Positions 5,467-33,488 of a stretch of DNA of 42,893 nucleotides are shown here, in pieces. The stretch covers positions 1 to 42,893 of the forward strand of contig MEDX01000024.1 in assembly GCA_001724245.1 (NCBI GenBank). Direction: 5' to 3'. Both the position numbers and the translations under genes were made by a program. The notes under the pieces were generated by a model. The model saw nothing but the letters and a program-made list of their open reading frames with translations, was not told where the DNA came from and did no database searches. Each line of letters opens with the position of its first letter. Position 1 is the stretch's first letter. The stretch is from Fonticula-like sp. SCN 57-25 (lineage: Eukaryota).

Positions 5467-7817
5467 TCAATGCATGGTAAACTTTTTCTTCGCGGCCTTT
5501 TTCGGCGTCTTCTTCTCCTCACCGTCGCTGTCGCTGTCGCCGTCGGCAGCCGCCTTTGTCTTTCTCCTGCGCTTCGAGTGCGACAGCGCGTCCAGCACGT
5601 CCTTCATGACGTCATCATTGTGCGCGGGCGCGGCGGGCGCCTCTGCCTCCTCCTCCTCCTCTTCCTTGGGCGCGGCCGCCGCGGCCGTCCTGTCGCGCTT
5701 GCGCCTCTGCTTGAAGAGCGACTCGATTTCGAGCGCGGACGTCGCGCTCTCCTCGGGCCGCTTTTCGCCGTCGAGCGTGAGCGCGCGCGCCGCCTCGTCG
5801 TCGTCGTCGGCCTTGGCGGGCTTGGCCTTCTTCCCTTTTGCCTTTGGCGTGGCGATGGCGCCGCCCGCTGACGAAAAGCCGAGCGCGGTCATGTTGTCGT
5901 CGCGCTCGGCGCGCAACTGCGCGATGGCGGCCTCGGCGGGCGTGCTGCCGGCCGGCACCGCCGCGTCGCCGCTGCCGATAATGTCGGCAAACATGTCCTT
6001 CTTGCGCGCGATGGAGCGCTCGCGGTCGACCCAGTCTTCGCGCTTGGCCTTGTACGCGTCGACCTTGCAGTTGCGCAGCGCAATGCGGCCGTACGTCGAG
6101 TCGCGGAGAATGCCTTCGCGGGCAAGCAGCTCCTCGGCAATGGTCTCGCGCATCGCAACGTCGGCGTGAAGCCAGGCGCTGTCGAGCGTGTGGCTGCCAA
6201 ACTTGTCCTGAGCAAGCTCGCCAAAGTGGCCCTTCAAAAGAGCAATCACGCGCTGCTTGAGGGGAAGCGACGCGGCAGAGGCGAGGCACGCCTCAATGAT
6301 GCGGCTGGCCGAGGCGTCCTTGCTCCAGCGGACGAGCTCGGTGGGGGCGCACGCGGCGAGGCTGTCGGCGACGACCTTGCACTCGGCCTCGGGGAAGCGC
6401 AGAAGGGCCTGGGCAATGAGCGAGCCAACGCGGGATGGTGGGGGGACGTCCTCGCGCAGTTGCTAGATGAGGCGTCAGTAACAAGAAGAAAGACCAAAAC
6501 ACTAAAAAAAATACGTACGTCAAATGGCGTCATGTAGGCGAGGAGTCGGACGAGCTGTTTGCGCTCGTGGTTGCCCTGGGCACGAAGCGCCTTGCAGACG
6601 AGCTGCAGGAGCGACTTGTGCTGCGCATGAACGCGCCACGCTGCGACGAGCATACTGAGCACGACGAGCCCCCGCTGGTTGTTCATGAGGCTGTCAAAGT
6701 GCGGCCTGAGTTCGTCGAGGATGAGCTCGAGGTGCTGCGGCCGCTTTGCCGAGCAGATGAGCGTCGACACGACGTGGTTTGCAAAGCGGTCCGTGACGAG
6801 CTGCGCGAGCTTGCCGCGGAAAACGGCCTGGAAGATGGCGAACCAGATCTCTGGCGGCGCCATTTCGACAATCTTTTCAAGCAGGTGGCTGCCGACCTCG
6901 TGGGACGCCATGGCGGCGAGCACGCCGGCCGACTCGTCGGCGAGCTGGCCATTGATGAGCGGGCCGAGAAGGCGGGCGAGCACCATGTCCAACAGCGACT
7001 TGCGCTTCTTGCCGACGACGAGGAAGAGCTGCACGAGCGAGCACGCCTTGTGGTCGCTGCACATGCCGTCGAGCTCCTCGTCCGTCGCATCCTCAATCAT
7101 GGCGGCGGCGAGGGCGTCAAGCTCGGCGCCAAAGGAGGCGGGGAGATTGGGGTCGGCGGGTGCCGGCTTGTCCGCCTCAGCAAGCAGGCGCGACGGAAGG
7201 TCAAGCTGGCGCGTGCGCGGTGCCATCGTGTCGACGTGAAGGCCGGCAAGAACATTGACGAGCGTGCGCATCACGGGGCCGCCGGTGGGGTCAAAGCACA
7301 GATCGTGGACCGAGGCGCGGAAAGCCTTGGACATTGACAGAAGGATGTTTTCAAAGCTGTCGGGAAGGTCAGTAATACCGGCCTCCATCTCGCGCGCGAT
7401 GGCTGCGGGGCACGCGCGCAGGAACGACTGAAGGACGTGCGAGCCGTTCACGTGGACCGACAGGGCAGCGAGGTCCTTCTCGAGGAGACGGCCCATGGAG
7501 CGCAGCTGCTCATCGGTCGAGTGAGAAAGAAGCTTCTGGACAACGCGGCTGCTCGTTCCTTCGCGGAACACGCCGGGCTTGTCGGCGATCTCGCGGAGTC
7601 CGTTGCCGACAAGCGCCTCGCGCTCGTCAGCGTCTAGCTCGGCCAACTTGGCATTGTCGAGGGATTCCGCAAGAGTGGTAAGATACTTGATAGTAGCCGC
7701 GTCCACGCGGGGAGCACGAGCAATTGATTCGCTATCGCCGCTATCGCGCCCCGCGCCGCCTTCGCTGCGGCCGCCACGACCGCCTCCGCGGCCCCCTCGA
7801 TGGCCGCCACGCTGCAT
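5467..7817 (-). CDS. NOP9: Nucleolar protein 9 (Pumilio-repeat 18S rRNA processing factor)
   Basis: N-terminal RGG, PUF-like repeats (SRVVQKLL, GSHVLQSFL, GSHLLEKIV, ANHVVS, FGSHTLD) and a basic/acidic tail. One intron at ~6465-6517 joins the two ORF-track pieces. Confidence 0.85.
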
Positions 7818-7924: not shown

Positions 7925-10900
7925 ATGCCGTTCTCGTACAAGGTACGGGCGCGAGCCCCGCGCGCTTTTCTCTGCACAGGAGATGTTTCTGACGCACTGG
8001 ACCGTGTTGCTTTGCTTAGTTTTCGAATTTGTGCGGAACCGTCTACAAGCGCGGCAATCTCGTGTTCACGCCCGATGGCAACCGTCTCTTGAGTCCGGTT
8101 GGCAATCGCGTCACCCTTTTCGACCTCGTACAGTGCGTGCACGCAGACCCACCCTGCCCTGTTGCTCAGTTGCCTGATGTGTTAATAGCAACAAGACTGT
8201 TACGCTCAATTTTGAAAATCGCAACAATATCGACTGCATCGCGCTGTCACCGAACGGCGCGATCCTCGTGTCAGTCGATGAGGGTGCGACCGCCTTGATG
8301 AGCACAAAGGTCTCTTGCTCACCTTTCCCACAGAGGGTCGCGCGCTTCTTGTCAACCTGAACCGCCGCGTCGTTCTTCACCACTTCAATTTCAAGGAAAA
8401 GGTTGATCATTTGGTATTCTCGCCCGACGGCCGGTACCTTGCCGCGACGCACGGCAAGCTTGTCCAGGTGTGGCGCGCGCCCGGCCTCCACCACGAGTTT
8501 GCTCCGTTTGTCATCCACCGCACGTATGGCGGTCATCACGCCGACGTGTTGCGGATCCAGTGGTCGCCAGACAGCCAGTACGTCGTCGCGTTCTGTATAT
8601 TACAGCCTCTGACGACGACCCTTTTTTAGGTATTTCCTCGCTTCGAGCAAGGATCTGAGCTGCCGCCTGTTCTCGCTTGATCCCGAGGAGGGCTTTTCGC
8701 CGTTCACCTTCACCGGCCACAAGGACTATGTGCTGGGCGCCTTCTTCTCGCGCGACCTCAAGCACATTTTTTCGGTGAGCCGCGACGGGGGCGTGTTTGT
8801 GTGGACCCCCGTGCCGCACGGCGCCAAGCGCGCGCGCGAGGATGATGATGAGGAGCCCTCTGATGAGCCGACGAAGCGCCGCCCCGCCGGCGTGTTTGCG
8901 AATGTGACGTGGACGCTGTCGCAGCGCCACTTTGTGAACCAGCCCTTTTCCAAGGTGACGTCGGTCGACTTTCACGTGCCTTCTGGCGTGCTCGCCGTCG
9001 GCCTCTCGACGGGCCTCTTTTGCCTCTACGAGCTGCCCGACTTTGCCGCCGTGCACACGCTGAGCATCTCGCAGCAGGCGGTGTCGTCCGTCTCGTTCAA
9101 CGCCGACGGCCAGTGGCTCGCGCTCGGCGTTCGCGGCGCCGGCCAGCTCATTGTCTGGGAGTGGCAGTCGGAGAGCTACGTGTTCCGCCAGCAGGGCCAC
9201 CTCTCGTCGCCGCCGACGTGCCTCGCGTACACGACCGACGGCGCGCACGTGGCGACCGGCGGCGCCGACGCCAAGATCAAGCTGTGGAGCACGCGCGACG
9301 CTTCGGCCGTCGTGACGTGGACAGAGCACTCGGCCGAGGTGACCGACCTCGCGTTCGCCAAGGGAGGCCAGGTGCTCTTTTCGTGCTCGCTGGACGGCAC
9401 GGTGCGCGCGTTCGACCTCGTTCGCTACCGCAACTTCCGCACATTTGTCGCGCCGTCATCTGTTCAGTTCAACTGCATTGCTGTTGATCAGAGCGGTGAG
9501 ATTGTCTGCGCTGGGTCGCGCGATACGTACGACGTGTACGTCTGGAACGTCCAGAACGGGAGGCTGCTCGATGTGCTCTCGGGGCACCAGGGGCCGATCG
9601 TGAGCATTGTCTTTTCGCCGTCGGAGCCAAGCGTCATCGCCACCGGCTCGTGGGACAAGACGTGCGTCTTTTGTTGTGGCTTTTTTGGCCTTGTTTTTGA
9701 CCTATTTTTTTTTATTTCCCCTTTTACTAACCCTTTTCCCTCAGTGTTCGCTTCTGGGATGTGTTTAGCGGCGTTCGTTCGCGCGATGTTCTCGCGCACT
9801 CTTCCGACGTTCTCGGCGTTGCGTACCGCCCCGACGGCGAGCAGCTTGCCGTCGCCACGCTCGACGGCTCCATCTCGCTGTGGGACACGCGCGAGGGCAC
9901 GCAGACGGGCTCTATTGAGGGCCGCAAGGACATTTCTGGCGGCCGCAGTGCCGCCGACCGTGTGAGCGCCGCCAACAACCCGGCGTCAAAGTACTTTACG
10001 TCGCTGTGCTACTCTGCCGACGGGCGGTGCCTGCTCGCGAGCGGCGCCTCTCGCTGGGTCTGTATTTATGACGTACGTATAGCGTTTTTTGTGCCTTTTC
10101 CGTGCCATTTTCTGACCGTCGTTTTCGCAGGCCGGTACGAGGAGCCTTCTTCGCAAGTACCAGCTGAGCAAGAACCGCTCTCTTGACGGCGTCGTTGACC
10201 AGCTCAACTCGAAGCAGCTGACGGACGCCGGCCCGCTCGAGCTGATTGACGACGACGAGGACTCTGCCGACGAGGAAGAGTCGCGCATGCGCCGCAACAA
10301 GTCGCTGCCCGGCGCGCAGGGCGCCGACTTTTCGTCGCGCCGCGTTCGCCCGACGGTGCGCTCGTACGGCGTCCGCTTCTCGCCGACGAACCGCTCCTTT
10401 GCGGCGGCGGCCACTGAAGGTCTTTTGATCTACTCAATGGACGACGACCTTGTGTTTGACCCGACCGACCTTGACCTCGACGTGACGCCCGACAACGTGC
10501 GCATGCTGCTGAGCCAGGGCGACTATCTGCGCGCGCTCGTCATGGCGGTGCGTCTCAACGAGGACGAGCTCATCGCCCTCGCGTACGCCGCCACGCCCGC
10601 CGAGAGCATCGAGCTCGTTTCGCGCTCGTTCCCCGACGGCTACGTCGTCCGCCTCATCACGTTCATTGCCGCGCACTGGGACGCGTCGCCGCACGTCGAG
10701 TTCCAGCTCTTGTGGGTGCGCGCGCTGCTGCGCCTGCACGGTGCCAAGCTGCGCGCCGCGCTCGCCACAATGTCGGCCACGCTCCCGTCGCTCAGGTCGC
10801 TCCACCGCGCCATCCTCGCCAATACAGAGACGCTCACAAAGGTGACCGACGACAACGTGTACCTTACACAGTACTTGTTGATGTCGTCGCGTCGCCCGGC

Positions 10901-10931
10901 GCCCGTCCAGAGCGCCGCCGCCAACGAGTAA
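7925..10931 (+). CDS. PWP2: Periodic tryptophan protein 2 (Utp1), WD40 SSU processome subunit
   Basis: MPFSYK|FSNLCGTVYKRGN, LLSPVGNRV, VWEWQSESYV, DGTVRAFDLVRYRNFRTF, AAATEGLLIYS, FDPTDLD. Six introns. Confidence 0.95.
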
Positions 10932-20495: not shown

Positions 20496-20560
20496 GATGC
20501 TGGTGATCGCTAGCAGGGCTCGATGGGAACTTTGTGGAGTGACACCGAGGGAAACAATTC

Positions 20561-20607
20561 CCTAAATAGGCAATCACACCCTAAATAGGAAAACTGACCA
20601 TAAATGG
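20561..20607. promoter_or_regulatory. Three tandem CArG boxes (MADS/SRF/Mcm1-type)
   Basis: CCTAAATAGG (20561), CCTAAATAGG (20580) and CCATAAATGG (20598), each a perfect CC(A/T)6GG. Confidence 0.6.
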
Positions 20608-20709
20608 CGATTTCGAGAATGGCACTAATCTTTTTTTTTTCGCGCCAGCGGTACAATACTGCGGCAGCATTGTGAGTGAGGGCACAGGTTCTTTCGTCGT
20701 CGGTTGGTG

Positions 20710-23579
20710 ATGGAGGACGCCACTCGTGGACGAGGTGCGGCGCCCGGCCGTGGCCGCGGTGTTGCTGGTGCTGGACGTGGTGCCCCCGGTGCGGGCCGTG
20801 GACGCGGTGCCCCCGCTGATGTTGCTGCGGCCCCCGTGACGGAGACGTCGGGCCGTGGTCGCCCTGTTGGTGCGCATCTCTTAATTTGCTCTTTCCCCTT
20901 TTCCTTACGTTCTTGCGACAGCTGCCGTGGCTGCCGATGTTGCCGCGCTCCACATCTCGACCCCCACTGCCGCCCGCCCGCCGTCGGCGCGCCCCGTGGC
21001 TGAGGTTTGCACCATCTCGCCATTTTTTTCTGCTCGCTAAACACTGATTTCTCCTTTTCCCTCTTTTTTCCCGCCCATTTAGCACGCCGCGCCCGGTGGT
21101 ACCGCGCGCGACGAGAGCGGCCAGGTCACCCGTGGCGAGGTCCGCATGCGCTTCCGCGAGATGATCCCCAAGCGCCCCGATGCCAACCCGGATCTCGAGG
21201 CTCGCGTGGCCCCCCGCTCGATCGACCTGCTGTCCAACTACTTTACCCTGAACAACAGCACCCCGACGATCTACCAGTACGCGGTCTCCTTTGACCCGCC
21301 GGTGGAGTCGCGCGCCATGCGCTTCACCATGCTTGAGTCCCACAAGGGTGTCTTTGGTGCGCATTGTTCATCTTTTCTCTCGTTTTGCTTATGTTTCCCC
21401 TTTCTTTTCAGGCGAGCCCTTTGCCTTTGACGGCATGCAGCTGTTCCTTAACAAGCGCCTGCCCGACCAGATCACCTACTTTAAGACTGTGCGCAGCACC
21501 GATAACCAGGCCTTCGACATCACCGTGCAGCTCGCGCGCGAGGTCGAGGCCAAGTCGTGCTTCCAGCTGTACAACATCATCTTCCGCAAGGTGTTGCGCC
21601 TTCTCAAGCTGAAGCAGATCGGCCGCCACTACTTTAACCCCGCTCTCCCGGCGCAGATCCCCCAGCACAACATGGAGCTGTGGCCCGGCTACATCACGGC
21701 CATCGCCGAGTACGACGCCGGTGTCCTGCTCAACATTGATGTCGCCCACAAGGTGCTCCGCACGGACAACGTGCTCGACCACATTGCCCGCCTTCGCCAG
21801 AACATCCGCAACCCGAAGGACCTCCAGGAGGCCGCGCAGGACTACCTCACCGGCCAGGTTGTGCTCACGCGCTACAACAACCGCACCTACCACATTGACG
21901 GTATCGCGTGGGACCTGACCCCCAAGTCGTCCTTCAAGCTCGCCAACGGCGAGACCATCACGTACTCTGAGTACTACAAGAAGACGTACAGCCGCGAGAT
22001 CCGCGACCTCAACCAGCCGCTGCTCGTCAACAAGGCCAAGAAGATGGTCCGCCGCGGCGACAAGGGCTCCACCGTCGAGGAGACCATCTACCTCGTGCCC
22101 GAGCTCTGCTGCATGACTGGATTGTGCGCTGGAACCTGGATTGTTGCCGATAAACTGACCCTTTTTGCCCGCAGCACCGACGAGATGCGCAAGAACTTTA
22201 GCGTGATGAAGGACATTAGCCAGCACACGATCATTCCGCCGAGCACCCGCAAGGCCTCGCTCGAGCGCTTCATCAAGCAGATCTACGACAACGAGGAGAT
22301 CTCGACCGAGCTCAAGGGCTGGAAGATGGAGTTTGGCCGCCAGCTGCTGCAGCTCAAGGGCCGCGTCCTCGGCGCCGAAAAGATCATCTTCAAGAACCGC
22401 ACCGTCCCCTCGCAGAACGCCGAGTGGACGCGCGAGCTTCGCAACATTGAGCTCGTTCAGGGCATCCCGCTCCAGAACTGGGTGATCATCTACTCGGCCC
22501 GCGCCGCGCCCGCCGCCAAGAACTTTATTGCCAACCTCGCTCGCGCCGGCAGCGCCATCGGCCTCAAGTCGGGCGCCCCCGTCGACGTGCCGCTCCAGCG
22601 CGACGGCGCCGGCGACTACACTCAGGCCATCCGCGACCGCTACGTGCCCGGCCAGACGCAGCTCGTCGTGTGCATCCTGCCCGACGACCGCAAGGACCGC
22701 TACGACGCCATCAAGAAGTACTGCGTCGCCGACACTGGCATCGTTTCGCAGTGCATGCTCGCGCGCACGCTCAACAACGAAAAGATCATGCTCGCGGCGC
22801 TCACCAAGGTGGCGCTCCAGATGAACGTCAAGCTCGGCGGCCAGCTCTGGTCCGTCGAGGTGCCGCTCAAGAACTGCATGGTCATCGGTATCGACGTGTA
22901 CCACGACTCGCTCCAGAAGGGCACGTCGGTGGCCGGCTTCTGCGCCAGCATGAACAGCACGTTCACCAAGTACTACACGCGCGTTGTGTTCCAGCGCGGC
23001 TCGCAGGAGCTCATGGACGGCCTCGCGCGCTGCATGTCCGACTCGCTCAAGAAGTACTTTGAGGTCAACGGCCAGCTGCCCGAGCGCATCATCATCTTCC
23101 GTGACGGTGTCGGCGACGGCCAGATGGGCTTTGTCGTGCAGCACGAGGTCGCCCAGATCAAGCAGGTGTTTGCCGGCTTTGGCGGCGAGTACAACCCCAA
23201 GTTCTCGGTCGTCGTGGTCAAGAAGCGCATCAACTCGCGCATGATGGTCGCCGGCGACAGCAGCAACCCGCCGCCCGGCACCATCGTGTACAACGGCATC
23301 ACCGGCAAGGACACGTACGACTACTTCCTCGTCGCCCAGGCCGTCCGCCAGGGTACCGTGACCCCGACCCACTACTTTGTGGTGCACGACACGAGCGGCC
23401 TCCAGGCGATGCACCTGATCGCCCTCACCTTCAAGCTCACCCACCTGTACTACAACTGGCCCGGTACTGTCCGCGTGCCCGCCCCGTGCCAGTACGCCCA
23501 CAAGATCGCCTTCCTCATCGGCACGTCGGTCCACAAGGAGCCTCACCAGCAGCTCACCGACAAGCTCTTCTACCTGTAA
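20710..23579 (+). CDS. PIWI: PIWI-clade Argonaute (N-PAZ-MID-PIWI), slicer tetrad intact
   Basis: VLTRYNNRTY, LVPELCCMTG, KDRYDAIKK, GIDVYHD, IFRDGVGDGQ, YNWPGTVRVPAPCQYAHK and C-terminal LFYL. RG-rich first exon. Four introns. Confidence 0.95.
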
Positions 23580-24399
23580 GAAGCGGCGGCGACCGCGTCG
23601 GGTTTGTTTGTTATTTGACCAATATCAACCTTTGTTGTATGCGGCAATGCCGCGCAGGCAATGAAACAGTCCTTTAAAGTTTTTCTGGGCCACTTTTGTG
23701 TTTTTGTCTTTGTCATCCGTGCGGCATCCTTACCCCGCAGGACGTTCACGTCCTGTTCACGACCGGGCTCGGGCGGTTACGAACAATCCACCAATCGGAG
23801 ACAACCCGATTCATATTTTTGTCACGTGACCCGACCACCGGAAGTCATTTCGGGGGTACCTCGGTAATGTGCCGGCGGAATAGGGACGGTTGTGTCGCGT
23901 CCGCACGTCGGGGAAGGTCAGGATCGCTCCCCGAGTGACGGGTGTCGGGCCCGCAACCTTTCGGCTGCTCAACGTTTCTGCGATGCCGATAGAATAGGGC
24001 CCAGCCGGCGGATTATTGTGGGTGGTCCGGGCCTTATGTTGGCCGGCGAAGGATCCAAAATACAGGAATAGCAACAAATGATCGTATCGAATTAAATCAG
24101 CCAATAGCGTCTTTAATCGAACCTCAACTTGCCCAAATTAGGCTGATGTTCCGAAGGAGGTGAGCAAGATTTCCATATTTAGAGTTGCATCAGGAAGACA
24201 AAGTGGCATCAATCCGCCGCGACGCAGTCCCCATAATTGGTGAGCCTGTGTGTCTCTGCAGCGCCCTGCGGGTTCTTTCGGCCCCCCCCCTCTGTCTGCC
24301 CTTTTCTCCCACTGCCAGTCTGTCCGCTCCCCGCGCGCCGGCTTAGCCACAACGTCTACTCTTCTTTTGATCCCAGCGGTTCAGGGGCGTAGGGCGACG

Positions 24400-25458
24400 A
24401 TGGCGGATGCCCGGCGGGATGCCAACAAGCGCCTTTACCACAGGTTTCCGGTAAAAGGCCCGCAGCCTGTGGCGCCTGCCGTCACGCGGGTTGCTGAGGA
24501 GCGCCGGCCACCGCCGCCGTCCCACTCGGCCCCGCGGGCGTGCAACAACTGCAAGCACGCCCACCTCGCCTGCGATCACTCGCGGCCGTGCAAGCGCTGC
24601 GTCGGGCTCAACAAGGCCGACTCGTGCGGCGATCTCGAGCGCAAGAAGAGGGGGCGCCCGCGCCTTATTCGGCCACTGGACGTCAACGGTGAAGCGGTGG
24701 GCTCTGCTGCCTCGGGACCCGTTTTGATCGCCCCGGCGATGCCCGGCAGCATGCAGTCGTCATCGTCGCCGCCGGGGTCGCCCGACACGACCACATCGGT
24801 CCGCCCGTCGCCCGCCACCGCCGCAGACGACGTTCTTTCGCGCGCCTCGCCGGTCGAGTCGAGCGTCTACTCTGATCTGCTGTCGCTTTCCTCCTCTGTT
24901 TCGGCTTACTCCATTCCAGCGGCGCCCGCCGTGGCCGCCTTAAGTACCAACAACATGGTCGCCTTTGCCCCCTCGATGCGGTATGGCGGCAGCCCCGCCC
25001 CTCTGGGCGCCGAGTCTGCTTCTGCGCCCGGCCCCGCCGCCGAGCCCGTCGCCCCCAGCGCGTGGCTTTCGTGCAACGCGTACGGCCAGATCGTCAACAT
25101 GTCGCCCAACGTCCACGAGCTGCTCGGGGAGCGCTTCCAGCACGCCGACATTGCGTCGCTCGTGCATGAGAGGGACCGCTCAAACTTTGAGGCCATGTGG
25201 CGGGCAGCGGCTGCCGGGTCGCCGCACAAGGGCGCCGTGCACTTTCGCACGAGCCAAGGGAAAGTTGCACTCTTTGATGTGGAGGTCAGCTACGTGGCCG
25301 GTGAGGGGGTCAACATCCGCTTTGCAAAGTTTACGCACCAGGGGCTGAACCACTACCCGACATGCATAGAGCATGCGCTGCCGACCATCCTGTCGCCGAC
25401 CGCTGTGCAGTCGCCGAGGCTTTCGTGGAAGATGTCGGCACCCACGACGTGGATCTGA
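24400..25458 (+). CDS. Zn(II)2Cys6 transcription factor with C-terminal PAS-like domain (Ert1/AcuK/AcuM-like)
   Basis: CNNCKHAHLACDHSRPCKRCVGLNKADSC followed by RKKRGRP. PAS-like GQIVNMSPNVHELLG...SLVHERD. Probable 5'UTR intron at ~24240-24376. Confidence 0.85.
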   Translation: MADARRDANKRLYHRFPVKGPQPVAPAVTRVAEERRPPPPSHSAPRACNNCKHAHLACDHSRPCKRCVGLNKADSCGDLERKKRGRPRLIRPLDVNGEAVGSAASGPVLIAPAMPGSMQSSSSPPGSPDTTTSVRPSPATAADDVLSRASPVESSVYSDLLSLSSSVSAYSIPAAPAVAALSTNNMVAFAPSMRYGGSPAPLGAESASAPGPAAEPVAPSAWLSCNAYGQIVNMSPNVHELLGERFQHADIASLVHERDRSNFEAMWRAAAAGSPHKGAVHFRTSQGKVALFDVEVSYVAGEGVNIRFAKFTHQGLNHYPTCIEHALPTILSPTAVQSPRLSWKMSAPTTWI

Positions 25459-30212: not shown

Positions 30213-33200
30213 ATGAGCCAAACGCCACCACGGCGAAAGGCCGATGGTACGCCGGGCATTGCCGTCTTTCCTGATTGTCGGTTGTAAACTAACGTTGGGA
30301 AAAATCAGTGTCCATGACATGGGCGGGCAAAGGCCCTTCGCCCGTCGTAAGCGGCGGCATGTCGCAGGAGCTTCGAGATCGTCTCGCGCGCCGTTCGGTC
30401 GCTCTAAACGGAGATGAAAGCCCAAAGGTACGCCGCCTCTCTTTTCCTTTGGGTTGTTGACCTTTCTGTGGAATGTGTAGGCGTCCAGTTTTGCGGCGTC
30501 CGCTCCTTTGCCGCCGTCGCTTTCGCCCTCGAAAAAGCCGTCGTTCACGGAAATGTTTGACCGCCCTTCCCCCGCGGCCTCGCCCGTCCCCCCTCCCCGC
30601 GTCAAGGTCGTTTCGGCGCCGGGATCGATTGGCCCGGCACGCACGCTGAGCCGCGCCGGTAGCTCCAACTTTGCCGGAAGCAACGGCAGCGCCGCTCAGT
30701 CCGCCGTTTCGTCCTTGCAGAGGAGCCCCACAATGCACTCTTCGTCTCCCTTGTCTACGTTTGCTGCGCCGATGCCGCTCGCTGGCGCCGAGGAGGACTT
30801 TTCGCCCGCTGCACTTGAGCGCCTCATGGCTGACGCGGCCACTCTGCTGGACGGCGCGATCATGACGAGCGGCCTCTTTGAGCGTCTTCGCGAGGCCGAC
30901 CGGTCGGAAGAGCTGCTTGCGGTGGACGACGCCGAGGCGCTGCAGCTTTCGACGTCGGCCATGTCACGCAAGGTGCGCTCGGGACGGCGCGTAAGCATCG
31001 ACGGCAATGACCCGACGGCCCCCGGCGGAAAGCCTGCCAAGGCGTCGTCCACGCCGGCTCTCGACACAATACCCGCCGAAGGGGCGAGCCCCAAGAAGCG
31101 CATTGTTTCGGCGAGCAGGCCGACGTCGACGGTCCGGCCAAAGTCGGCCGCGCGCCTGACGACGGCCTTTTCGATCGAGGACATTGAAAACTACATGAAG
31201 CAGATGGCCGCAAAGCTGAGCGAGATTGCAAAGCTGTGCGCCATCAGGACACGCGACGACATTCTGAATATGCAGACAAGTTTAATTTTATTCAATTTCA
31301 AGGTACCGGAATTTCTTTTTGAATTATTGGCTAAGAACAACCGCAGGAAATCTCCTCGATTGTGCTTGTGTTTCTCGAGCGTCTCGGTGCGCAGGTGGAC
31401 ACGAACGAGCTGTGCTCGACGTCCATCCAGCTCACCTCGATGGAGAGCACCGTGTCGGTCGGTCTGGCGGCCCTCAACCTGCGCGGCGACAAGGTGCGCA
31501 AAAGCTGAATATTTGCACGTTATCTGACAAAAGGTGTAGCCCAAGTATGGCGAGGACCTCAAGCGCGCCATCATTGACCTTTTGGCGGCCACCAAGGCCG
31601 TCGCGCAAGCCTATATTGTCGCACAGTCCATCGTACGGCACATGGATATTATTTTTTCTTTCGTACTGACACATGTTCTTTTAGCAACAAAACCGCCTGT
31701 TTGTTGAAGCGCCTGGCTTTGTTGTCGAGGTGGGTCGCCTGGTCGCGCCCGCCGGCAACTCTGCCGCTCTCCAGCAACTCCACCGCATGTCATACTCGTT
31801 CTCTGCATCGGCCTCTGTCGTGTCCAACGCCGCGGCGCAGGCCCAGGCGGCCTCGGCGGCGTCTGTCGACTATGCAAACTACCGCCTCGAGCACATTGAC
31901 GAGGAGGCGACCTTTTACCGCAAGTTTTTTATTGGCACTGATCACCGCAATTATGTCGGGTTTGACGAGCGCGGGACGCCCGTGTGCGTGTCGATCAAGC
32001 GCGAGAGCGTGGCGGCTCGCGATGGCGCTGCTGAGGATGAGCAGGTCCAGTACCGCGCCATCTTTCGCACGCACGAGGGCGACATGCGCGCCGTCATCCC
32101 GGCAGAGTCCATCGCCACGGCAAAGCGCATCGGAAAAATGTCGTGGAAGGACATTGTGCGCGCGTGCAGCCCGAGCTTGAAGGCAGGCAAGTTGAGCAAT
32201 ATTGAGGATGGAAAGATTCATGATGAGCTGCTGCGATTGGACGAGCAGCGGACGATCAAGGCGTACAAGTTTGGCGTGCTGTACTGCCGCGGCGGCCAGC
32301 AGACAGAGGAAGACATGTTTGGAAATGGTGCGTGAAGTTTGTTGGTACCTGTTTCTTCTTTTTTCTACTTGCTTTGTGCTTATTCTGTGCTTATTTTCCG
32401 CATTTTTCGGTCTTGTATGCTCATTTTTTTCGCTTTTCAGAGAACGGATCTCCCGCCTTTGACCAATTTTTAAACTTTCTCGGCAAGCGAGTGCGCCTGA
32501 GCGAGCACACAAAGTTCTCTGGTGGCCTCGACACGCGCGGCACCAACACGACCGGCACGCACAGCGTGTACACCGAGTGGCGCGACTTTGAGGTGATGTT
32601 CCACGTGTCGACACTGCTGCCATTCGGCGCGACCGGCGAGGACCGCCAGCAGATTCAGCGCAAGCGCCACATTGGCAACGACATTGTCCTTATTGTCTTT
32701 ATGGACGGCAAGGGCCAGTACGACCCGCGCACCATCCGCTCGCAGTTCCTCCACACGTTCATTGTCGTGCAGCCTATCAAGCCGCTCACACCGGGCAAGC
32801 CGCGCTACCGCGTGTCCGTCGCGAGCAACGAGGACGTTCCGACGTTCGGGCCGAGCTTGCCAAAGCCGGCAGAGTTTGACCAGTCGGAAGAACTGCGCAA
32901 CTTTTTGTACTGCAAGCGTACGTTTTTGTGGTCATTATCGCTGCTTTGGCGCGCATGTGATTTTCTTTTTCTAACTTTGTGTCCCACAGTGATCAATGGT
33001 GAGAATGCCGCGTACATGGCGCCAAAGTTCCGCGACCCGCAGGCGCGCGCGCGCCGCTCAACGATCGAGTTCCTCGTCGAGTCCTTTAGCAATGCTGCCC
33101 TCCTTCAGTACGCCACTTGCACACTTTTCCTTTTTTTGCTGACACCCTTTCGCTTTGCAGAAAGGCCAAGACGCGCGAAAAGACGCTTGAGCGTCGCGAG

Positions 33201-33488
33201 GGCAAGGCGGCCGCCAAGGCTCTTGCCAAGGAGAACGCGCGCGCCGCCGCGGGAGCAAATGAGGGCGAGCCGCGCAAGACGAGCATGGGGTCCGTCCGGA
33301 GCGACAAGTCGCTGGGCGACGGCGCTTCGGCGGCGGGCATCGTGCCGAGCGACTCGGCCATCGACATTGACGAGCGCGTGCAGGTGAAAAACATTTTCCT
33401 GAGCGAGCAGCGCAAGCTGCTCATGATGTCGATCAGGAAGGCGGGGCGCGCCTTCATGGCCGACAACGCGGGAAGCGCCGCAAACTAG
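30213..33488 (+). CDS. Rap GTPase-activating protein (Rap/Ran-GAP domain)
   Basis: YKFGVLYC..QQTEEDMFGN, FLNFLG, GGLDT, EVMFHVSTLLP, QRKRHIGNDIVLIVF and INGENAA. Eight introns. Confidence 0.9.

Follow-up and report, generated by a model that had tools for sequence, protein, structure and literature searches.

The window, which is the whole stretch of DNA analysed (42,893 nt; positions 1 to 42,893 of the forward strand of contig MEDX01000024.1), was a contig of a metagenome assembly (GCA_001724245.1), and contained at 20710-23579 of the plus strand (ATG at 20710, TAA at 23577-23579) a gene that is, judged by similarity, a PIWI-clade and not an AGO-clade Argonaute. An earlier note on this DNA had given exactly these coordinates, and had described an animal-like, slicer-competent PIWI with a GRG-repeat first exon in a microbial eukaryote. 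The gene is genuine and adds a new member to a known family, in a distribution that is moderately surprising: it is probably an intact nuclear PIWI gene of animal type, carried by an uncultured, GC-rich microbial eukaryote for which the best, though insecure, placement was beside aphelids and Fungi.

The spliced model of the PIWI gene comprised five exons and four introns, and had an open frame of 877 codons with no internal stop (Table 1). Residue numbers are those of this 877-amino acid model, from which the window coordinates were also mapped. All four introns were of the GT..AG type (52, 78, 55 and 51 nt), with the donor GTGCGC in three of them and GTTTGC in the remaining one, and the donor 8-mer of intron 1 (GTGCGCAT) was the same as that of intron 3. 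Exon 2 was included in the model because the frame between the RG-rich exon 1 and the conserved body in exon 3 required it. The strong bias towards codons ending in C or G claimed in the earlier note, where it was taken to suggest high expression, is real, and only mildly over the local norm: the GC content at third codon positions (GC3) was 0.895 in the coding sequence, rank 2 among the 24 high-GC3 open reading frames (ORFs) of the window (range 0.72-0.91).

Table 1. Features of the PIWI gene, followed by other regions of the window discussed in the text.
Feature	Position	Strand	Remarks
Exon 1	20710..20869	+	Start codon and RG-rich N-terminus; phase-1 end after '..RPV'
Intron 1	20870..20921	+	52 nt, GTGCGC..CAG
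Exon 2	20922..21004	+	83 nt, Ala/Pro-rich linker; predicted, from reading-frame requirement
Intron 2	21005..21082	+	78 nt, GTTTGC..TAG
Exon 3	21083..21356	+	Last disordered part and start of Piwi_N; Pfam match 21266-21352
Intron 3	21357..21411	+	55 nt, GTGCGC..CAG
Exon 4	21412..22123	+	N domain, ArgoL1 (21618-21758) and most of PAZ; Pfam
Intron 4	22124..22174	+	51 nt, in frame, GTGCGC..CAG, CTGAC branch-like site
Exon 5	22175..23579	+	Linker 2, MID, PIWI domain (Pfam Piwi 22662-23531), DEDH codons, MID pocket, stop codon
GIDV, D650	22893-22895	+	Alignment
QEL, E688	23007-23009	+	Alignment
RDG, D720	23103-23105	+	Alignment
YAHK, H852	23499-23501	+	Alignment
Divergent intergenic region, M20 dipeptidase gene / PIWI gene	20496..20709	.	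214 bp; putative shared promoter
PWP2/Utp1 gene	8020..10925	+	At least 6 coding segments; basis of host placement
ORF with Zn2Cys6-like motif and weak PAS-like region	24244..25458	+	Cysteine spacing; Pfam below cut-offs

The encoded protein matched the Pfam families Piwi (4.6e-89), PAZ (2.2e-30; span 21792-22229, straddling intron 4), ArgoL1 (7.6e-6) and, in exon 3, Piwi_N (PF23278; 28.9 bits, cut-off 27). In the same scan of the PIWI protein the AGO-type ArgoN scored under its cut-off, and matches to ArgoMid and ArgoL2 were absent. Comparison with all PDB chains by phmmer (query, the 721-amino acid read-through protein) returned 46 distinct chains at E ≤ 1e-10. Solved animal PIWIs aligned end to end at 441-681 bits (Ephydatia Piwi-A, mouse PIWIL1 (MIWI) and PIWIL2 (MILI) 580-681; Siwi 532; Drosophila Piwi 441), versus 122-141 bits for human AGO1-4 and 73-78 bits for the fungal QDE-2 and KpAGO. 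Identity to animal PIWIL1 was 47%. The scores, the Pfam profile and an unrooted tree of PIWI-type sequences (below) thus agree with the earlier assignment to the PIWI clade.

All four contexts of the DEDH tetrad named in the earlier note (GIDV, QEL, RDG, YAHK) were found. The tetrad was in register with animal PIWIs and was kept in 16 other aligned sequences, save P0007, which ends before the H, and slicer competence is predicted from it. The MID residues Y586, K590, Q602 and K629, which we take from AGO and PIWI structures to be those that bind the 5'-phosphate, were conserved in the relatives of the window protein and in animal PIWIs. The C-terminus (...DKLFYL) was like that of animal PIWIs, as had been noted, and its ..LFYL end was conserved in the relatives and in animal PIWIs.

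The homologue search scored 8000 candidates, 335 of them at E ≤ 1e-20. The best 120 of the 335 began with the window protein, followed by eight environmental proteins (53-62% identity) and then by animal PIWIs (≤ 48%). Every organism-named match among these 120 was an animal PIWI, and neither a PIWI from a named fungus nor a ciliate or amoebozoan PIWI-clade protein was among them. A search of the ESM Atlas with the MID-PIWI exon returned generic Piwi-domain clusters only. Scanning of metagenomes yielded 11 PIWI loci (L001-L011): L001 (61% identity, GC 0.59), L002 and L009 (62-64% identity, GC 0.32-0.33, with introns), L010 and L011 (GC 0.54-0.55, with introns; assigned to the window clade because their N-terminus resembles that of the environmental protein P0004), and L003-L008 (46% identity, intronless, N-terminus MTGRARGRSRGRA). 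The last six nested with the PIWIs of Cladonema and Sanderia (hydrozoan and scyphozoan), and were rejected as relatives of the host, being cnidarian transcripts or DNA in environmental data. The PIWI genes of the AT-rich loci L002 and L009 were richer in introns than that of the window, with at least 7 in L002 (1-5585). Genomic composition and intron density therefore differ greatly within the window PIWI clade. On the 52-kb contig of L011, the PIWI gene was followed (5904-6983) by the gene of a thiamine-diphosphate enzyme, by eye similar to 2-hydroxyacyl-CoA lyase or oxalyl-CoA decarboxylase, and there was no synteny with the window.

A maximum likelihood (ML) tree of PIWI-type sequences only (40 rows, 851 columns, LG+C20+F+G4) was evaluated by ultrafast bootstrap and by the Shimodaira-Hasegawa-like approximate likelihood ratio test (SH-aLRT), given in that order. 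The window clade of 10 rows (members 53-63% identical) received 100/100, and a transcript from EukProt was its sister (99/98). Animal PIWIs formed a PIWIL1-like clade (19 rows, 100/99) and a PIWIL2-like clade (10 rows, 100/100). The window clade was inside neither, and attached by a long stem (0.44) at the node between the two. This topology is as expected if the window clade were the outgroup of animal PIWIs, which an unrooted tree does not prove.

Exon 1, the first of the five, held 7 GRG and 9 RG within 53 residues. Over all six frames of the window there were 84 GRG in 85,786 codon positions, and other stretches of 53 residues held at most 3. The first exon of L001 (MADSAGRGRGRGRG...GRGRGRG) ended in phase 1 after 'PV', as did that of the window gene, and spliced in frame to the main ORF; L002 also had an RG-rich exon upstream. 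An RG-rich first exon, as claimed in the earlier note for the window gene, was therefore present in 3 of 3 genomic loci with upstream DNA (window, L001, L002). The relative P0244 had an RGRARG motif close to its N-terminus, and the sister transcript from EukProt had 4 GRG in its first 100 residues. The RG exon was kept across relatives with a genomic GC from 0.32 to 0.60. Introns at three positions were common to the window gene and relatives (intron 1 in L001, introns 3 and 4 in L002). With a slash for the intron, the junction at intron 3 (..FG/EPFAFDG) agreed with intronless relatives, and that at intron 4 (PELCCMTGF/TDE) was the same, residue for residue, as in the intronless relatives P0002 and L001. 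That the gene was inherited and is under selection is indicated by its RG-rich first exon and the three common intron positions.

Horizontal transfer of the PIWI gene from an early animal would fit the high identity to animal PIWIs and the lack of a named fungus among the best 120 of the 335 matches. It is improbable for a clade that falls within neither animal paralogue clade, sits on so long a stem, and has at least 10 members of 53-63% identity, a GC of 0.32-0.60 and host-style introns in common. Given the position, depth and spread of the clade, any transfer must be very old, before the diversification of the sampled animals.

The window being a metagenome assembly, and cnidarian PIWI transcripts (L003-L008) being known to turn up in metagenome collections, an artefact was also considered, in the form of animal DNA or of a chimeric contig. 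This is scarcely credible for a window of uniform composition, in which GC3 and intron style were alike in the PIWI and PWP2 genes and an intergenic region of 214 bp joined the PIWI gene to a housekeeping gene. The introns of PWP2 had the donors GTGCGT (twice) and GTACGT and TACTAAC/CTGAC branch-like sites, a style in common with the PIWI introns that is therefore evidence against a chimeric contig. One PWP2 intron had a canonical TACTAAC box. The closest relatives in the PIWI tree were not animals. The DNA run of an independent study contained 69% of sampled words and near-identical contigs across the PIWI gene. Other runs with near-identical pieces of the gene had the labels bioreactor, wastewater, aquatic, soil or 'fungus metagenome', and two run sets with such pieces were organism-labelled.

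The neighbours of the PIWI gene are, from their sequence matches, ordinary eukaryotic housekeeping genes. They comprised a KH-domain protein, an MFS transporter, NOP9, PWP2, an M28 peptidase, a HATPase_c-domain protein, an M20 dipeptidase, Vps5, Rap-GAP, Rgp1, an S33 hydrolase and mitochondrial phenylalanyl-tRNA synthetase (PheRS). The M20 (CNDP/Dug1-like) dipeptidase gene lay on the minus strand, divergent from the PIWI gene (ATG at about 20495), and from their position the two genes may share a promoter in the 214-bp gap. Rfam and tRNA scans of the window gave no match, and no Hen1, Zucchini/PLD6 or Tudor gene was among the ORFs scanned in the window.

Zn2Cys6 domains occur also outside fungi. 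The earlier note had placed a fungal-type Zn2Cys6 gene beside the PIWI gene. The motif is there, in the ORF downstream: six cysteines at about 24535-24651 (CNNCKHAHLACDHSRPCKRCVGLNKADSC; C-x2-C-x6-C-x5-C-x2-C-x8-C) had the spacing of the PF00172 pattern (C-x2-C-x6-C-x5-12-C-x2-C-x6-8-C). The domain assignment did not hold at the Pfam threshold (Zn_clus 19.1 bits, E 0.0015; gathering cut-off 21). Being below the cut-off and of a domain type not exclusive to fungi, this neighbour adds little to the argument on the host. About 170 residues past the motif there was a PAS_3 match of 18.1 bits (cut-off 25.6). From these below-threshold matches, the ORF could have the architecture of a sensor-regulator that combines a zinc cluster with PAS.

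The host is a microbial eukaryote and not an animal, as the earlier note had it, according to the housekeeping neighbours and to the matches and trees of PWP2. Among the best 120 PWP2 matches, 111 of the 111 named ones were fungi (48-55% identity), and yeast (374 bits) and Chaetomium (363 bits) scored higher than human (319 bits). In a quick tree of 47 rows (LG+C20; window model from tblastn segments), the window was sister to Amoeboaphelidium plus all Fungi (96 SH-aLRT), with a group of Monosiga, sponge, fish and nematode elsewhere, and Corallochytrium elsewhere too. In a tree of 24 rows (full LG+F+G4 search), the window was again beside aphelid and Fungi, and Holozoa were monophyletic beside them. 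The first 37 residues of PWP2 were 86% identical to those of Calcarisporiella, and the whole protein 54% at most.

Two candidate hosts were rejected: Corallochytrium (PWP2 41% identical and placed elsewhere in the tree) and Dikarya, the Basidiomycota clade excluding the window (95 SH-aLRT, from an earlier PWP2 tree on raw stop-to-stop ORFs with a spurious end branch of 3.4) and identity being equally low to all fungal phyla. The homologue search with NOP9 was uninformative on the host (three matches: NOP9 itself and two plants, 23-26% identity). The PWP2 results suggest, at about an even chance, that the host is a deep holomycotan next to aphelids and Fungi; the main alternative is a non-animal holozoan.

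Animals and amoebae have the Rap1GAP type of Rap-GAP more commonly than Dikarya do. The Rap-GAP gene of the window (32227-33387, plus strand) was of this type (Pfam Rap_GAP 5.9e-58; 149 bits to human Rap1GAP versus 43-53 bits to the tuberin/TSC2 GAP domains), and fits a protist-like gene content, going by that general distribution.

The action proposed for the protein was inferred by homology with solved animal PIWIs, for guide binding, slicing, methylation and Tudor docking as well as for guides and targets. A 5'-phosphorylated small guide RNA would be held in the MID pocket (Y586, K590, Q602, K629 and the C-terminal carboxylate), with its 3' end anchored in PAZ, and a complementary RNA would be cut by the DEDH centre (D650, E688, D720, H852). 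The GRG repeats would correspond to the motif type that in animals is symmetrically dimethylated by PRMT5 and bound by extended Tudor domains, and through them partner proteins are probably brought in. The protein likely silences transposons or other repeats under the guidance of RNA. The guides may be either like PIWI-interacting RNAs (piRNAs), Dicer-independent and 2'-O-methylated, or like small interfering RNAs (siRNAs), as PMC12477606 has it for ciliate and amoebozoan PIWIs.

Several results weigh against the interpretation of the locus as an animal-type PIWI gene of a fungal-side microbe. The placement of the host rests on one gene, PWP2, and is marginally significant. The window PWP2 was no nearer to one fungal phylum than to another (49-54% identity), and between-phylum identity within fungi was mostly 59-76% (down to 55% for Coemansia); on these identities, either the host would be outside the sampled fungal phyla or its PWP2 would be fast-evolving. 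A grouping of the window with holozoans was not rejected (p = 0.49) by a quick approximately unbiased (AU) test. A regraft that made the window the sister of animals likewise escaped rejection (difference in log-likelihood, lnL, 17.2; p-AU = 0.159). Other regrafts gave p-AU of 0.020 (Monosiga), 0.043 (Corallochytrium), 0.036 (an MMETSP protist), 0.006 (aphelid), 0.050 (chytrids), 0.009 (blastoclads) and 0.0009 (two further representatives). A constrained tree (search incomplete) was only marginally rejected (13.9 lnL worse, p-AU = 0.048). The PWP2 of the jakobid Stygiella incarcerata (EukProt) fell inside the clade of Fungi plus aphelid; its position is a long-branch artefact, and shows the limited resolution of a single-gene placement. 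The PIWI tree is unrooted, without an AGO or a non-opisthokont PIWI outgroup. Gene-finder calls of several relatives (P0002, P0004) start without RG motifs; the call of P0003/L001 without RG was shown to be a shortened gene call, so that at least some such N-termini are shortened calls, as those of P0002 and P0004 may be. Lastly, Dicer-made siRNAs serve the PIWI-clade proteins of ciliates and amoebae according to PMC12477606, and membership of the clade alone therefore does not imply piRNAs.

A unicellular holozoan host, ichthyosporean-like or other, would make the window gene a further case of the pre-metazoan Piwi reported in 2025. It would agree with the Piwi-like proteins with an RG N-terminus that PMC12147562 describes in Ichthyophonus hoferi and Chromosphaera perkinsii, with the PWP2 tests that leave a position beside animals (p-AU = 0.159; p = 0.49), and with the Rap1GAP-type gene, insofar as its general distribution is a guide. 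It is nevertheless rather unlikely, since the free ML trees of PWP2 put the window beside aphelid and Fungi with Holozoa monophyletic elsewhere, the positions as sister to Monosiga or Corallochytrium were rejected at 0.05, Corallochytrium PWP2 was only 41% identical, and the PWP2 scores of yeast and Chaetomium exceeded the human one.

Tetrahymena Twi1p and the Agn proteins of Dictyostelium are examples of PIWI-clade proteins outside animals, and ciliate and amoebozoan PIWIs probably lie much further from animal PIWIs than the window protein does. The window protein may be a PIWI by descent and yet AGO-like in action, with Dicer-dependent siRNAs, no piRNA-like biogenesis and no Tudor scaffold, as is known of PIWI-clade proteins outside animals (PMC12477606). 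It would also agree with the lack of a Tudor, Hen1 or Zucchini gene among the ORFs scanned in the window. This is a serious possibility, set somewhat below even. Against it count the 47% identity to animal PIWIL1, far nearer than would be expected of the ciliate and amoebozoan proteins, and the preservation of the GRG-rich exon at GC from 0.32 to 0.60, which points to selected docking of the kind seen in animals between symmetric dimethylarginine and Tudor domains.

The preferred interpretation, an animal-type PIWI gene in a microbial host beside aphelids and Fungi, can be extended, with a good deal of doubt, to a PIWI module (slicer plus methylation/Tudor tail) that was present in the ancestor of animals and fungi and survives, in an uncultured lineage widespread in the environment, at the fungal base with a piRNA-like, Dicer-independent genome defence. 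If this were true, the piRNA pathway would be no holozoan or animal invention, and would have been lost secondarily in fungi. If the placement of the host alone were true, the PIWI type and its Tudor-docking tail would date to the opisthokont ancestor at least, and there would be a unicellular setting for asking what PIWI did before germlines. The usual view of PIWI and piRNAs is of a system of the animal germline. Here free-living microbes had a PIWI whose similarity to animal PIWIL1 nearly equals that between animal paralogues, which suggests that PIWIs of this kind are older than animals. The interest lies in the host, in the size and spread of the environmental clade, and in the conserved RG exon.

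Compared with animal PIWIs of the PIWIL1/Piwi-A type (Ephydatia fluviatilis Piwi-A, 7kx7; mouse MIWI; Siwi, 5guh), the window protein aligned over its full length (E about 2e-203, 47% identity), and had in common with them the Piwi_N-PAZ-MID-PIWI architecture, DEDH, the MID pocket, ..YAHK.., the ..(F/Y)(F/Y)L C-terminus and N-terminal RG/GRG. It differed in belonging to a microbe, in lying outside both animal paralogue clades, and at the PAZ-L2 junction (TGF, versus TGL in six aligned animal sequences). Unlike animal PIWI systems, a single gene copy was seen, which gives no evidence for a ping-pong pair. The fungal AGO-clade proteins (Neurospora QDE-2, 2yhb; Kluyveromyces Ago, 4f1n) shared the Argonaute superfamily and the PIWI domain, and belonged to the other clade, with only 73-78 bits versus 680 bits for animal PIWIs.

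Like the PIWI-clade Argonautes of ciliates and amoebae, which according to PMC12477606 act with Dicer-dependent small RNAs, the window protein is a PIWI-clade member outside animals. The same review-type analysis of 2025 describes the PIWI clade as apparently lost in plants and fungi, and Richter et al. (PMC6040629) report no Piwi in choanoflagellates. A literature search that left most subscription journals and paper supplements outside found no report of a gene of this clade from Holomycota or from early-diverging fungi. The claim of the earlier note that the system was undescribed has to be narrowed, since a paper of 2025 described, from the ichthyosporeans I. hoferi and C. perkinsii, Piwi-like proteins that have RG motifs at the N-terminus and may, it argued, be sister to animal PIWIs (PMC12147562). 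By description, these are like the window protein in being PIWI-clade proteins from outside animals with PAZ and Piwi domains and N-terminal RG. The window case differs from them in its host, which the PWP2 trees put on the fungal side. That host, placed from one gene in a lineage where PIWI is held to be lost, would be the new element.

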